IMG/VR virus record: IMGVR_UViG_2563366891_000011 | Span: 1-30,301 of that record | Length of the DNA: 30,301 nt | Source of the DNA: a virus | Taxonomy: Duplodnaviria; Heunggongvirae; Uroviricota; Caudoviricetes | Strand: one strand, 5' to 3' | In this document: one piece after another, positions 2,713-18,441 of the stretch | Numbering within the stretch: the first letter of the stretch is position 1 | Layout: every line of letters begins with the position of its first letter | Translations under genes and position numbers: made by a program | Notes under the pieces: generated by a model | Told to the model about the DNA's origin: nothing | Database searches by the model: none | The model's input: only the letters and a program-made list of their open reading frames with translations

Positions 2713-3537
2713 TCAGGCGGTGAAAGTACCAATAAAGGTTTCTACTTTGCTGTCTTTGAATTTCTCAACAAGCAGATCACGAAATTCGTTAGCCATTTCT
2801 TCCTGCACCGCTTCCAGCTGAATAATGCGCAGAACCAGTACAGGACGATCGCCAGTGATAATGCTGAGGCGTAATTTAAACGGACGTTCTTTCAGACCTT
2901 CAAACGGAACGCATTTAAATTCAAATGCCACTGGCATAATGTCTTTGGTCTTCGCTTCGACAGACTCCATCAGGGAGCGTTTGCCGCTGAAGTCATTATC
3001 TTCAAAATCAGCGGTCTGGTTTGCTTCAATCGTGATTTTACGGACTGCCGCAGCCGCTTTTGTTGCCTGAATAGCGTCACCATTAGCATCAAAGCCCACA
3101 AGGTAGTCGGCCCAGTCTTCGATCCATTCTGCCAGTGACTTCTGGGAGTTACGCTCGCCGTTAACAGACAACAGAGCAGAGAACGGTGCTGTCTTTTTCA
3201 GTTTGAGAGTGGCAGTGTTATCTGCGTGACCTGGCTCATCAATAGTACCCAGGTTAAGCACACTGACGGCACGCATATTATCGGCATCGATAAAGCAGCG
3301 GGTGCCTTCATCTGCAAGATCTTTAGAATAACGGGTAAAATCATCGATGCTGGCAGTGGAAAGTGCACCACGGAAACGGAAGCGATTTAAATTAAATTTT
3401 TCCAGATCATGAATGCGGAAATTCTCAGGCAATGCCACAGCATCGGCACCAATCTTACTGATAATTTCATTAACACCCTGAGCAGAAATAAGGGCATGGA
3501 TTTGATTAATTGCGGTTGCGTCTAAGTTCTGAGACAT
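2713..3537 (-). CDS. yfdQ: DUF2303-family protein (YfdQ-like)
   Basis: 274 aa ORF, ATG at 3535-3537 with GAGGA RBS; size and sequence character match CPS-53 YfdQ as I recall. Confidence 0.75.
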
Positions 3538-3602: not shown

Positions 3603-3965
3603 TTAACGACCTGCTGCGCGGAGTTTTCCGTCAGGTTCACCGGCAAGAGTCAGTAATTGTCCCTGGTCTTCCTGTAGAATAGTCAGGCGACCACCGCGAT
3701 TGACATACATCGGCGTTTCGGTGGTGTCTTCTTCGGAAATTTTCCCGCGGTTAGTTGGGCGAACATATGAGAGTTTGTGTTTGATTTTCACACGGTTCTC
3801 ATCAAACGGTTCGATTTCCAGATTGAGTGAGACCTTCCCTTTGGTTTTCGTGTTCATCACACCGGAAGCGACCTCACTGAGAACTGCGCCGATTTTGGTT
3901 TCAAATACGCCGCCGTCCAGCTCCCCGATAAATGCCTGCACATCAGTACTGCGTTCGCTAGCCAT
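3603..3965 (-). CDS. Hypothetical protein, 120 aa (YfdP-like)
   Basis: Internal ATG at 3963-3965 preceded by GAGGAG; the longer upstream extension in the ORF track lacks an RBS. Confidence 0.65.
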   Translation of the reverse strand: MASERSTDVQAFIGELDGGVFETKIGAVLSEVASGVMNTKTKGKVSLNLEIEPFDENRVKIKHKLSYVRPTNRGKISEEDTTETPMYVNRGGRLTILQEDQGQLLTLAGEPDGKLRAAGR

Positions 3966-4014
3966 TTTGCTGCTCCTCATCATATCGACCCTGCAAGGTC
4001 GGTTGGTTTCTCCA

Positions 4015-4148
4015 CAAAACAGAGAAGAACACCTGCGGTGGCAGCCGCCCGGATGGATTGGGTTATGAGCCCGTCGTCCGGTGATGCTCTTCTCTGTTTT
4101 GCAAAAAAGGACGGTACCAGCCGGAAGCAAGGGTACAAACTGGTACCG
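4015..4148. repeat. Nested inverted repeats: 14-bp IR (4015-4028 / 4088-4101, 59-nt spacer) and 9-bp IR with GGTACC cores (4112-4120 / 4140-4148)
   Basis: Read directly: CAAAACAGAGAAGA vs TCTTCTCTGTTTTG; CGGTACCAG vs CTGGTACCG; a third GGTAC lies between them. Confidence 0.8.
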
Positions 4149-4245
4149 CCAGGACTACACACAGCAATGAAACTATTGCCTGTCTTTTCACCACTTCAGG
4201 CTCGGTGGTATGCTGGAGTTCTCACACAGCCAGCAAGGAAACCTA

Positions 4246-4587
4246 ATGAACCAGTTTTATGTTCACGTTCGTCTGTTTGAAGCAACAGCCGAACAGACCA
4301 AAAAATTTGAAGAATTAATGCTTAACTTTCTGTACCAGAAAACAATCAAAGAGTCTGACGATAGCTGCTGCAGACTGATTCCAGAGGGATATATCCTCAA
4401 AAGCACAATGAACTGCCAACAAATCCTTGATCAAACTTTTTCCATTGCTAACAGTGCTGGTGTTGACGCAAATATATTTGTCTGCAAATTTGAACAAAGC
4501 GTATGCTTACTTCCGTCTGCTTCCTTAGTTGGCAACGATTTTGTTCATCACGATCTTACGCCTAAGCCCATCAAGCTCGATTCTTAA
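4246..4587 (+). CDS. Hypothetical protein, 113 aa, AT-rich moron-like gene transcribed against the leftward early operon
   Basis: ATG at 4246 with AAGGA RBS 6 nt upstream; extended -10-like TGgTATGCT at 4206-4214; low GC relative to flanks. Confidence 0.45.
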   Translation: MNQFYVHVRLFEATAEQTKKFEELMLNFLYQKTIKESDDSCCRLIPEGYILKSTMNCQQILDQTFSIANSAGVDANIFVCKFEQSVCLLPSASLVGNDFVHHDLTPKPIKLDS

Positions 4588-4833
4588 TGCCTTAACCATT
4601 GTGTCGTGATAAACACGGCTCACCCTCTCTCCATTGCATGGCAGTGGGGTGATCGTGTTAGCCATGAAATTCATGAACTTGGTTCGATCAGGGTCTTGCG
4701 CCTCGCAAGTCTTTAATGCCTGTTTTGCTAACAAAATACGGGCCTCAGTGCCTGCATTTGGCTCTATCTGCTGCAAACGTTTAGCGTCTTCCAGCAACAA
4801 TGCGATCACATGCTTCAAATCCTGCTCATTCAT
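4525..4833 (-). CDS. Hypothetical protein, 102 aa, first gene downstream of the putative PL (N-position gene, but not Arg-rich)
   Basis: ATG at 4831-4833 with GGAGAG RBS; its 3' end overlaps the convergent 4246..4587 ORF by 63 bp. Confidence 0.55.
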   Translation of the reverse strand: MNEQDLKHVIALLLEDAKRLQQIEPNAGTEARILLAKQALKTCEAQDPDRTKFMNFMANTITPLPCNGERVSRVYHDTMVKALRIELDGLRRKIVMNKIVAN

Positions 4834-4939: not shown

Positions 4940-4985
4940 AGTTGTAATCTAGTTGTTGTTTTGGTTGTTGTCAACAACTTTATGT
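4940..4985 (-). promoter_or_regulatory. Putative OL/PL: operator motifs including perfect 15-bp palindrome GTTGTTGTCAACAAC (4964-4978) and a leftward promoter (-35 TTGACA at 4969-4974, -10 TAGATT at 4946-4951, minus strand)
   Basis: Palindrome and sigma70-like hexamers with 17-bp spacing read directly; the AAGTTGT/ACAACTT motif recurs on the other side of the repressor gene. Confidence 0.5.
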
Positions 4986-5168: not shown

Positions 5169-5855
5169 TTACCAAGTGCGCGATGACCAGAATACTCTAC
5201 CTATAACGTGAATTCTGGAACGCCTATCTTCGAAGGTGAGTATTTCATCTGGATACTCATCTTTATTGAAACTTCTTAGAATCAGACCACCGTCAGGTAA
5301 ATTGATCAATATTTTAACTCTAAGTAATACGCCATCACGTATGGCATAAAGATCCCCATCACGAATAGGAACCGTTTGGGAAACATCAACAGCAACAAAA
5401 TCTCCATTGTTAAGTACAGGTAGTAAACTATTGCCCCAAATTTTTACGATCTTTGCATTGGAGACACATACACCAGCTTTTCTTAAATCAATCCTTCTTA
5501 GCGGGAACCAGTCTACAGTTGATTCAACTATTTCAGCCAAACATCCATTACCCGCTGATAACTCGACATCTAGGACTGGAATGTTTGCAAAAATGTCAGG
5601 ATCTAATGCTGTACTTTCAGCCTCCTTTACAACAAGGTCTGGGAAAGACGCGTTATCCTCAATGCCCAATTGCAACCACTTTTGAGAAACCCCTAACACT
5701 TTAGCAATCTCTTTAATTTTCCGAGGCTGTTGAGTTTCTCCATTCTCGATTTTCGCTACGGATTGTTGTGAAAGCCCAATTTTTTCAGCTAGTTGCGCCT
5801 GACTCATTCCTGCTTTTTCTCTTTCGCTTTTTAGTCTTTCTGCCAATGTTTTCAC
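5169..5855 (-). CDS. cI: CI-type prophage repressor (N-terminal XRE-type HTH, C-terminal S24 LexA-like peptidase domain)
   Basis: 228 aa; GTG start at 5853-5855 with GAGGGGGA RBS; HTH segment MSQAQLAEKIGLSQQSVAKIENG; C-terminal Ala-Gly, Ser and Lys positions consistent with an autocleaving S24 fold. Confidence 0.88.
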   Translation of the reverse strand: MKTLAERLKSEREKAGMSQAQLAEKIGLSQQSVAKIENGETQQPRKIKEIAKVLGVSQKWLQLGIEDNASFPDLVVKEAESTALDPDIFANIPVLDVELSAGNGCLAEIVESTVDWFPLRRIDLRKAGVCVSNAKIVKIWGNSLLPVLNNGDFVAVDVSQTVPIRDGDLYAIRDGVLLRVKILINLPDGGLILRSFNKDEYPDEILTFEDRRSRIHVIGRVFWSSRTW

Positions 5856-5992: not shown

Positions 5993-6241
5993 ATGACACC
6001 TGAGCAATTAGCCTTATCAGAGGCAATCGCTCTGGCTGGTGGTCAATCAGAATTGGCTCGGAAGCTCACAGCCAGCAGTGGTCGTTTAGTAAAGCAACAA
6101 CATGTCTGGAACTGGTTGAACAGAGAAAAGCGTCCCCCTGCAAAGCTTTCGATATTTATTGAAATGACCACTGGCGTATCAAAAGAAAAATTACGTCCAG
6201 ATATTTTTCAAAAGATTAAAGACTTATCAGATGGAAAGTAA
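5993..6241 (+). CDS. cro: Cro-like HTH regulator
   Basis: 82 aa, AGGAGA RBS, divergent from the repressor across the operator cluster; small basic HTH protein. Confidence 0.78.
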   Translation: MTPEQLALSEAIALAGGQSELARKLTASSGRLVKQQHVWNWLNREKRPPAKLSIFIEMTTGVSKEKLRPDIFQKIKDLSDGK

Positions 6242-6263
6242 CCACAGTTTTAAGGAGATAGCC

Positions 6264-6821
6264 GTGGGTAAGCATCACTGGAAAGTAGAAAAACAGCCTG
6301 AGTGGTACGTGAAAGCTGTCAGAAAAACTATCGCAACATTGCCGGGTGGTTACGCTGAAGCAGCTGACTGGCTGGATGTAACAGAGAACGCATTATTTAA
6401 CCGCCTTCGTGCTGATGGCGATCAGATTTTCCCGCTGGGATGGGCAATGATTTTGCAACGTGCTGGTGGAACTCACTTCATTGCTGACGCTGTGGCGCAG
6501 TCTGCAAATGGCGTCTTTGTGTCTCTTCCTGACGTCGAGGATGTGGACAACGCCGATATAAACCAGCGCCTGCTGGAAGTCATCGAACAGATCGGGAGTT
6601 ACTCAAAGCAGATTCGTTCGGCAATCGAAGATGGGGTAGTGGAGCCACACGAGCAGACAGCAATTAATGATGAGTTGTATCTGTCAATTTCGAAGCTCCA
6701 GGAGCATGCAGCACTGGTCTACAAAATCTTTTGCGCTCCAGAAAAGAGTAACGCCCGCGAGTGTGCAGCTCCGGGCGTCGTGGCGTCGATTGCTTCTGGT
6801 TGTGGAGAAACTAACGCATGA
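6264..6821 (+). CDS. Putative CII-like early regulator (family uncertain; alternative ATG start at 6231)
   Basis: GTG at 6264 with AAGGAG 6 nt upstream; sits in the cII slot after cro; family assignment is tentative. Confidence 0.55.
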
Positions 6822-12570: not shown

Positions 12571-12713
12571 GTGCACAGAAAACCCCCAGCTAGGCTGGGG
12601 GTTCCGGAAAGCTTTCAGCTTTAAGCCAGTTATTAAAACCCCTTTTGATTTGTTAAAACACCTTGCGGTCTGGCAACTGCAAGTGTCAAACAAGAAATCA
12701 AAAGGGGGTCCCA

Positions 12714-18264: not shown

Positions 18265-18441
18265 CGCGGGTTTTCGCTATTTATGAAAATTTTCCGGTTT
18301 AAGGCGTTTCCGTTCTTCTTCGTCGTAACTTAATGTTTTTATTTAAAATACCCCCTGAAAAGAAAGGAAACGACAGGTGCTGAAAACGAACTTTTGGGCC
18401 TCTGTCGTTTCCTTTCTCTGTTTTGGGCCGTGGAATGAACA

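Follow-up and report, generated by a model that had tools for sequence, protein, structure and literature searches.

Introduction

The small RNA (sRNA) DicF is encoded in the early-left operon of the lambdoid prophage Qin of Escherichia coli K-12, where a terminated transcript of 1,146 nt (ydfABC-dicF, ending at the DicF terminator) coexists with a read-through transcript of 1,608 nt, and its biogenesis depends on RNase III as well as on RNase E (PMC10448788). An RNase III-dependent site lies 36 nt 3′ of dicF (PMC5371410 Table S1). Prophages also encode the sRNA STnc100 and its relative PasD, both of which have intrinsic terminators (bioRxiv 10.64898/2026.05.13.724894). These are among the closest described systems to the region discussed here, which is marked by two inverted repeats at positions 4015–4148 of the IMG/VR virus record IMGVR_UViG_2563366891_000011 (Caudoviricetes); the whole stretch that was analysed, positions 1 to 30,301 of that record, is referred to below as the window.

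The window represents the left arm of a lambdoid prophage resembling e14 and SfV, and the region of the repeats is probably the leader of the leftward early operon of a prophage of the e14/SfV/mEp460 type, acting as RNA of the minus strand. Read in that direction, one repeat is predicted to form an intrinsic terminator, while the other is the closing helix of a three-way junction of approximately 100 nt, which starts at the U-tract of the terminator and ends about 40 nt before the first early-left gene. The junction is a widespread RNA motif, supported by covariation and without an Rfam family, and no description of it was found in the literature searches made.

The inverted repeats and the strand on which they act

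The initial annotation of this region described a perfect 14-bp inverted repeat (CAAAACAGAGAAGA at 4015–4028 and TCTTCTCTGTTTTG at 4088–4101, with a 59-nt spacer; repeat 1) followed by a perfect 9-bp inverted repeat (CGGTACCAG at 4112–4120 and CTGGTACCG at 4140–4148, with a 19-nt spacer; repeat 2), the latter carrying three GGTAC motifs (positions 4113, 4132 and 4142). The repeats, their locations and the motifs were all recovered as described. Repeat 1 can be extended to arms of 24 nt with 83% complementarity (4015–4038 and 4078–4101), and perfect 14-mer inverted repeats with loops of 3–100 nt occur at two loci in the window and at none in 40 dinucleotide shuffles. The sole other perfect repeat of at least 14 bp in the window has arms of 16 bp (AGAAAGGAAACGACAG at 18361–18376 and CTGTCGTTTCCTTTCT at 18402–18417) and a 25-nt loop. 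Perfect 9-mer inverted repeats, on the other hand, are expected approximately 12.7 times per shuffled window, so that repeat 2 is not significant alone, and it gains its significance from the adjacent U-run and from conservation. The middle GGTAC motif falls in the loop of the hairpin and is not kept in relatives such as K-12 e14.

Three candidates had been put forward for the repeats (a structured RNA in the leftward early transcript, a dyad operator array and a small remnant like a miniature inverted-repeat transposable element, MITE), and it is the first of these that the data bear out. When both strands are folded, the minus strand reaches −92.6 kcal/mol (z −6.1) and the plus strand −81.9 kcal/mol (z −3.7), a difference that is due to G-U pairs, which become A-C mismatches on the opposite strand. 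A covariance model built from 13 variants and scored on relatives gives 68–118 bits in the sense orientation vs 25–40 bits in antisense. The conserved G-U pairs therefore assign the element to the minus-strand RNA, in which the compensatory changes described below are also found. The earlier statement that neither repeat has a T-tract, and that neither is thus a simple terminator, does not hold for repeat 2: it is adjoined on the plus strand by six A residues, which read UUUUUU after the hairpin on the minus strand.

The predicted intrinsic terminator

On the minus strand, repeat 2 belongs to a G+C-rich hairpin followed by at least five U residues, the arrangement that characterizes intrinsic terminators (Table 1). 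The hairpin has a predicted free energy of −20.5 kcal/mol (z −4.15), and in this model repeat 2 would be the intrinsic terminator of a module of the DicF/STnc100 type, that is, an ordinary kind of element. Relatives were collected from four sources, namely E. coli genomes, phage records, IMG/VR contigs and, with the protein YfdP as anchor, species-representative genomes. Among their 78 distinct upstream contexts, 74 have a hairpin of −8 kcal/mol or better (listed values −12.9 to −33.5) that abuts a T5–T8 run immediately 5′ of the junction. This position is taken by at least seven unrelated stems (GGCGGUACCAG, GCGGCAUC, GCGGCGUC, CUGGCGG, GGGGCGGUAACA, GUCGGCGUC and UGCCCAUC), which means that the feature is kept while the sequence of the stem drifts.

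Immediately 5′ of the hairpin is a single-stranded stretch that occupies the position of the DicF seed and aligns with the seed part of the Rfam models of DicF and STnc100. The sequence GCUGUGUG(U/A)AGUC recurs at this point in leaders of E. coli, Citrobacter, Klebsiella and Salmonella, even with a different terminator stem, and the stretch is a candidate sRNA seed.

Some terminators upstream of the junction have long loops (L010, L011, L040, L140, L156, L160, L162 and L164). They share the sequence ...UCUUCC...AGGAGGAAGA.GAUAAUGUUCUG..., which places a Shine-Dalgarno-like sequence and an AUG inside the loop and is absent from the window, and a short open reading frame (ORF) would run through the 3′ half of the terminator in a frame that differs between variants. 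This short ORF may reflect translation-coupled attenuation.

The three-way junction

The covariance model matches the window at 4006–4111 of the minus strand with 115.4 bits, and repeat 1 is part of the closing helix (P1) of a three-way junction whose other two arms are P2 and P3 (Table 1). One unpaired A stands on either side of the junction. In the alignment of 39 distinct sequences, which was fitted to the covariance model, 93.9% of the cells form standard pairs and 14 of the 40 pairs (85 cells) are changed on both sides, whereas in slid controls, with the partners moved by 1–3 columns, the corresponding values are 41–57%, 1–5 pairs and 2–12 cells. An independent MAFFT alignment of 13 sequences gives 93.8% paired cells and 8 covarying pairs vs 0–2 in its slid controls. 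The compensatory changes are present in P1, in the base of P2 and in P3 alike. P3 is variable, and inserts of approximately 41 nt take its place in some relatives; midway along P1, a mismatch is also conserved (31/39 sequences). The first six residues of the extended P1 are predicted to be those of the terminator U-tract, which would pair with GUGGAGAA through U-G and U-A pairs. RNase III substrates have helices of about 20 bp or more, and P1 falls within this range, its inner 19 or so pairs being supported by covariation.

Between the junction and the ribosome-binding site there is a further small hairpin. In relatives its stem differs and its loop, U(U/G)GCAG, is kept and often appears again on P3, so that it looks like a repeated binding motif; hairpins with a UGCAG loop elsewhere in the window (27 vs approximately 6.8 in shuffles) lie mostly inside genes and are uninformative.

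At gathering thresholds, Rfam finds only STnc490 in the whole window, at another location, and at E ≤ 10 the repeat region yields chance matches and a weak DicF match only. The STnc490 match, to an Hfq-binding RNA, is full-length (12581–12704, plus strand; 146.1 bits vs a threshold of 56). Searched with the junction model, the 30-kb window shows no further copy in either its rightward or its late operon. A boxA-like GCUCUU in the 3′ strand of P1 was considered and set aside, as it is base-paired and the window reads GUUCUU.

Two observations concern the surroundings of the helix in relatives. In L014 (2325–2390, minus strand) a long P1-like helix (AACAGGUAAGAGCAUUG...CAGUGCUCUUUCCGUUGUGGUGAAU) encloses a different interior that has no tRNA-like loop, so that helix and core can be combined independently. 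In K-12 e14 and many relatives, the 3′ flank of P1 is the 16-mer TTGTGGAGAAACTAAC, which in the window is found at 6800–6815 (plus strand), at the end of ymfL, where its GGAG provides the ORF that follows (ATG at 6818) with a ribosome-binding site; the 16-mer is possibly a boundary sequence that modules share.

Distribution of the module

Of 5426 complete E. coli genomes, 2850 contain a match to the intergenic module, at a median of one location each and at no more than five. The module is also present in SfV, SfII, SfIV, mEp460, cdtI, Ayreon, ST64B, phiNP and LLS, as well as in many Stx2c and Stx2a phages. Every locus examined is situated in a prophage early-left leader. In the YfdP-anchored sample, which was selected on the protein and not on the RNA, 19 of 30 loci have the junction, with its end approximately 40 nt ahead of the gene (16 distinct junction sequences); they come from many genera of Enterobacterales, including Mangrovibacter, Enterobacter, Leclercia, Kosakonia, Phytobacter, Atlantibacter, Superficieibacter, Scandinavium and Pseudocitrobacter. 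In relatives the module precedes rdgC, xisE or other first genes, and it therefore belongs to the operon leader rather than to yfdP.

Kinship with DicF and STnc100

Comparison of the flanking sequences indicates that the terminator slot is homologous to the dicF slot of Qin. The 123 nt just upstream of dicF in K-12 are 89% identical to the element upstream of the terminator in leaders of the mEp460 type, which thus offer the same genomic place and a homologous flank; the window itself has no flank homologous to this dicF-upstream element. Both loci are located in a lambdoid early-left operon, and the order of the parts is alike: a structured element comes first, then a short stretch that is single-stranded and a terminator hairpin of the form GGCGGUA(U/C)CAGUUU... 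with its U-run; behind the U-run, a long helix closes a further structured element, whose end lies before the ribosome-binding site of the next gene. The hairpins themselves are similar (GGCGGUAUCAGUUUUAC... in DicF, GGCGGUACCAGUUUGUAC... in the window). The loci differ in that the window has no upstream element, in that the RNA after the terminator is the three-way junction here and an element termed B in Qin, and in the sequence of the seed (UUGCUGUGUGUAGUCCU vs UUUCUGGUGACGUU), so that the DicF seed is not found in the window. The Rfam DicF model (RF00039) gives 15.7 bits in the window (E 0.95) and 28.4 and 28.5 bits in relatives, compared with 76.7 bits for genuine DicF, and neither the window nor the relatives reach the gathering threshold of 48 bits.

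The likeness to STnc100 is seen in leaders of the SfV and e14 type, where the model (RF02076) takes in the B element, the seed and the very terminator discussed here. In SfV-type leaders it aligns over its full length, with its end exactly at the U-tract (43.1 and 40.4 bits), just missing the gathering threshold of 47 bits for a model of approximately 206 nt. The window has no STnc100 match at E ≤ 10, model positions 1 to approximately 160 being deleted, and a search for the upstream A/B element in the window found it absent: only the last 60 nt or so of a DicF/STnc100-type unit are kept, and the upstream body of approximately 155 nt that is present in e14, SfV and ST64B is missing. A further difference is that PasD and STnc100 have been described mostly near Q, in the late region.

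Two families of structured elements of approximately 130–150 nt, each closed by a GUUGUGG...CCACAAC helix, flank terminators of the DicF type in varied combinations (1752–1874 and 1936–2100 in L168, K-12 Qin; upstream of the terminator in L004, L002, L006 and L011). One family shows the 89% identity between Qin and mEp460-type leaders; the other has a 28-nt core that is 96% identical between Qin and the leaders of e14, SfV and ST64B, and its Qin member scores 34.4 bits on the STnc100 model.

As for other sRNAs of these prophages, svsR and co293 (of NC-SV and e14) were considered as identities for the element and rejected, svsR being located elsewhere, at the 3′ end of cI. The co293 sRNA of e14 presumably lies near the end of icd.

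Genomic setting

The features of the leader and the genes around it are collected in Table 1. A leftward promoter-like site is predicted from the sequence at 4974–4946 (TTGACA-17-TAGATT); it is strong and has operator-like repeats on its flanks. Repeats 1 and 2 therefore fall within the leader of the leftward early operon, ahead of the first extended series of genes in it. A promoter-like sequence for ymfI, which encodes the 113-aa protein YmfI, can be read at approximately 4187–4214. Genes ymfI (plus strand) and ymfJ (minus strand) are convergent and overlap by 63 nt (4525–4587), and the leftward early transcript is therefore antisense to the whole of ymfI before it reaches the terminator. 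No match to an N-type antiterminator was found among the early-left ORFs tested.

Table 1. Features of the early-left leader and neighbouring genes in the window (positions are those of the window).
Feature	Positions	Strand	Remarks
Single-stranded stretch AUUGCUGUGUGUAGUCCU	4151–4168	−	Just 5′ of terminator hairpin; position of DicF seed
Predicted terminator hairpin (repeat 2) GGCGGUACCAG...CUGGUACCGUCC	4109–4150	−	13 predicted pairs, 15-nt loop
U6 tract of terminator	4103–4108	−	Plus strand AAAAAA
P1, 5′ strand (includes right arm of repeat 1)	4083–4108	−	26 predicted pairs, 8 changed on both sides
P2 arm CCGGACGACGGGCUCAUAACCCAAUCCAUCCGG	4049–4081	−	Base covaries: CCGGA/UCCGG, CCGGG/CCCGG, CCAGG/CCUGG
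P3 hairpin GCGG-CUGCCA-CCGC	4035–4048	−	3/4 pairs changed on both sides
P1, 3′ strand GGUGUUCUUCUCUGUUUUGUGGAGAA (includes left arm of repeat 1)	4008–4033	−	
Small hairpin ACCGACC-UUGCAG-GGUCGAU	3984–4003	−	Between junction and ribosome-binding site
Shine-Dalgarno GAGGAG; yfdP start codon	3973–3978; 3963–3965	−	First gene after leader
YfdP	3603–3965	−	
YfdQ	2713–3537	−	
Excisionase and YfdR phosphatase	within 1020–2612	−	
Integrase	1–1164	−	
YmfI	4246–4587	+	
YmfJ	4525–4833	−	
LexA-type cI repressor	5169–5855	−	
Cro-like protein	5993–6241	+	
CII-like YmfL	6231–6821	+	

Proposed mechanism

Leftward transcripts would most likely start at the predicted promoter 4974–4946, run through ymfJ and first meet the intrinsic terminator. 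Some of them would stop in the U-tract, leaving a short 3′ module of the DicF/STnc100 type made up of the single-stranded stretch, the hairpin and a U-tail, a module that in the window would be truncated by the loss of its upstream body. Transcripts that read through would immediately form the three-way junction, whose closing helix of approximately 26 bp is predicted to start in the U-tract, and P1 would be the most likely RNase III site. A cut in P1 would detach the upstream RNA from the yfdP-to-int mRNA and would set both the 5′ end of this mRNA and its translation state. In our analysis, then, the most likely role of terminator and junction is that of an RNase III processing and 5′-untranslated-region module for read-through transcripts, and we consider the mechanism as a whole to be reasonably probable.

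The comparison with the dicF-dicB spacer points the same way. In Qin the DicF terminator is directly followed by a 21-bp helix closing a structured element that ends just before the ribosome-binding site of dicB, and the two leaders share a helix of at least 20 bp just upstream of the ribosome-binding site of the first gene of a PL operon, together with an internal mismatch, which here is the conserved one of P1; they differ in that what P1 closes is a three-way junction, the tRNA-like loop of which is conserved and has no counterpart in such hairpins. The RNase III hairpin of the lambda N leader is, we assume, a comparable early-leader system. In e14, DNA damage induces ymfH, xisE and intE (PMC11228462), which indicates that read-through of the leader does occur in that prophage. 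As to RNase III sites, the dataset examined for e14 lists those of ymfJ-cohE and dicF-dicB only, and ymfH has none there.

Several points weigh against this proposal. The junction and the Qin element that follows dicF are not homologous (the model gives at most 12 bits in the latter), and the RNase III argument is therefore one of architecture only. The near-invariant loop CUCAUAA and the three-way design are not explained by RNase III alone. The 15-nt loop of the terminator is longer than usual, and a simple terminator scan gave no call; the window moreover has no upstream A/B element to account for the passage of RNA polymerase through a strong terminator. The outer six pairs of P1, between the U-tract and GUGGAGAA, are kept without compensatory change, and since they never covary the extension of P1 into the U-tract is only predicted. 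Finally, in Providencia the layout is kept (terminator, UUUUUUACA, long hairpin, UGUGGAG) and the junction is replaced by a plain hairpin.

The tRNA-like loop of P2

The tip of P2 (4060–4072, GGGCUCAUAACCC) lies within a 14-nt sequence, CGGGCUCAUAACCC, that is identical at 14 of 14 positions to the anticodon stem-loop of E. coli tRNA-fMet, a sequence that was checked and is 100% identical in all 5426 genomes. The resemblance was noticed after the fact, and the likeness is restricted to three G-C pairs and the loop. Of the 16 distinct junction sequences in the YfdP-anchored sample, 15 retain CUCAU. Most have the loop CUCAUAA and four have CUCAUUC; four show a helix shortened to GG/CC, and only the Scandinavium sequence has no CAU.

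Lambdoid phages of Klebsiella carry the same core directly 3′ of tRNA genes that lie downstream of Q; an acceptor-like stem (GGCCUG/CAGGCC) encloses it there, with ACCA or GCCA after the stem, and its second hairpin covaries. This form is a three-way-junction RNA of 70–71 nt, seen in L007 (2978–3047), L008, L014 and approximately ten IMG/VR contigs (minus strand). In Pantoea PA-1 a full junction follows a terminator in an apparent late leader. That the element is a tRNA gene was rejected: ARAGORN calls no tRNA gene in the window, the Klebsiella form is likewise not called by tRNA finders, and the Rfam tRNA model matches neither the window element nor the Klebsiella copy at E ≤ 10.

From these facts it could be proposed that the three-way junction represents a new class of cis-acting phage leader RNA with a mimic of the initiator-tRNA anticodon arm, of which the Klebsiella form is a released, tRNA-like version; the mimic would then address the 30S P site, IF3, MetRS, an anticodon nuclease or RNA polymerase. 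We regard this as a speculative and rather unlikely interpretation. The functional part of the idea, namely that the tip of P2 acts as such a mimic towards a host factor (for instance the 30S P site, IF3, MetRS, an anticodon nuclease) or pairs with the start codon in cis, with the Klebsiella copy and its NCCA end as the free-standing form, seems improbable. The identity to tRNA-fMet, the constancy of CUCAU and the Klebsiella architecture argue for it, as does the presence of the module before many different first genes, all AUG-initiated. Against it stand the short extent of a likeness seen post hoc, the negative tRNA searches, the replacement of one G-C pair by G-U in the Klebsiella and Pantoea copies, the lack of CAU in L163, K-12 e14 and Providencia, and the finding that loop variants show no correlation with the start-codon context with which the loop could pair.

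Other readings of the region

Another alternative has the junction work in cis as an antiterminator or anti-Rho RNA, so that N-less lambdoid phages would possess in it a functional counterpart of HK022 put. A put-like mechanism has been suggested for these N-less phages (PMC12315714), and no N-like protein was found among the early-left ORFs of the window. The junction and putL/putR are both cis RNAs of two stem-loops in an early leader, P2 and P3 being adjacent and together 50–75 nt long; in L097 the element directly follows a promoter-like sequence with no terminator, and the late-leader copy of Pantoea PA-1 could be read in the same sense. The comparison with HK022, in which putL and putR were located by position in the PL and PR regions, speaks for a different element: there is no sequence similarity to either, the model finds no match in HK022, the window has a single copy and none in the rightward operon, and the junction is placed 3′ of the first terminator, so that it could not act on that adjacent terminator. 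An identity with put was rejected on these grounds, and with the plain hairpin of Providencia also counting against it, a put-like function appears doubtful.

The dyad operator array of the initial annotation would have the repeats act as DNA, binding a regulator of divergent ymfI and yfdP promoters. The repeats do lie between divergent genes, close to the promoter-like sequence of ymfI. What is kept, though, is the pairing rather than the sequence, through compensatory changes and G-U pairs that are relevant only in RNA; the spacing of the arms varies by up to 27 nt (106–133 nt overall), the module is mostly found where ymfI is absent, and folding energy and model score are strongly asymmetric between strands. 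We give this reading very little credence.

Equally far-fetched is the notion that the region codes for a YmfH-like protein or is a functionless MITE or decayed tRNA gene: K-12 ymfH is annotated across the homologous region, the mechanical ORFs that overlap this region are 43 to 175 aa long and the core resembles a piece of a tRNA, against which stand the lack of a conserved ORF over the junction (in 7 of the 39 variants every frame is interrupted by stops), element lengths of 106–133 nt with steps that are not multiples of three, the frameshifts that PGAP marks in the overlapping ORF of relatives, the single copy per prophage in a constant early-left leader position (a MITE remnant is thus not what is seen) and covariation, which shows selection on structure. 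K-12 ymfH (L002, e14, 3002–3313) and the ORFs annotated as “frameshifted hypothetical proteins” (L005 and L006, 3015–3326), which overlie the STnc100-like element, the terminator and the junction, are probably not genes.

Implications

The leader composed of terminator and junction provides a defined and testable object for the question of how N-less early-left operons pass terminators (PMC12315714). It also explains doubtful ORFs, such as K-12 ymfH and the frameshifted hypothetical proteins, as RNA modules, and it places the terminators of sRNAs of the DicF and STnc100 type within a larger, mosaic set of leader modules.

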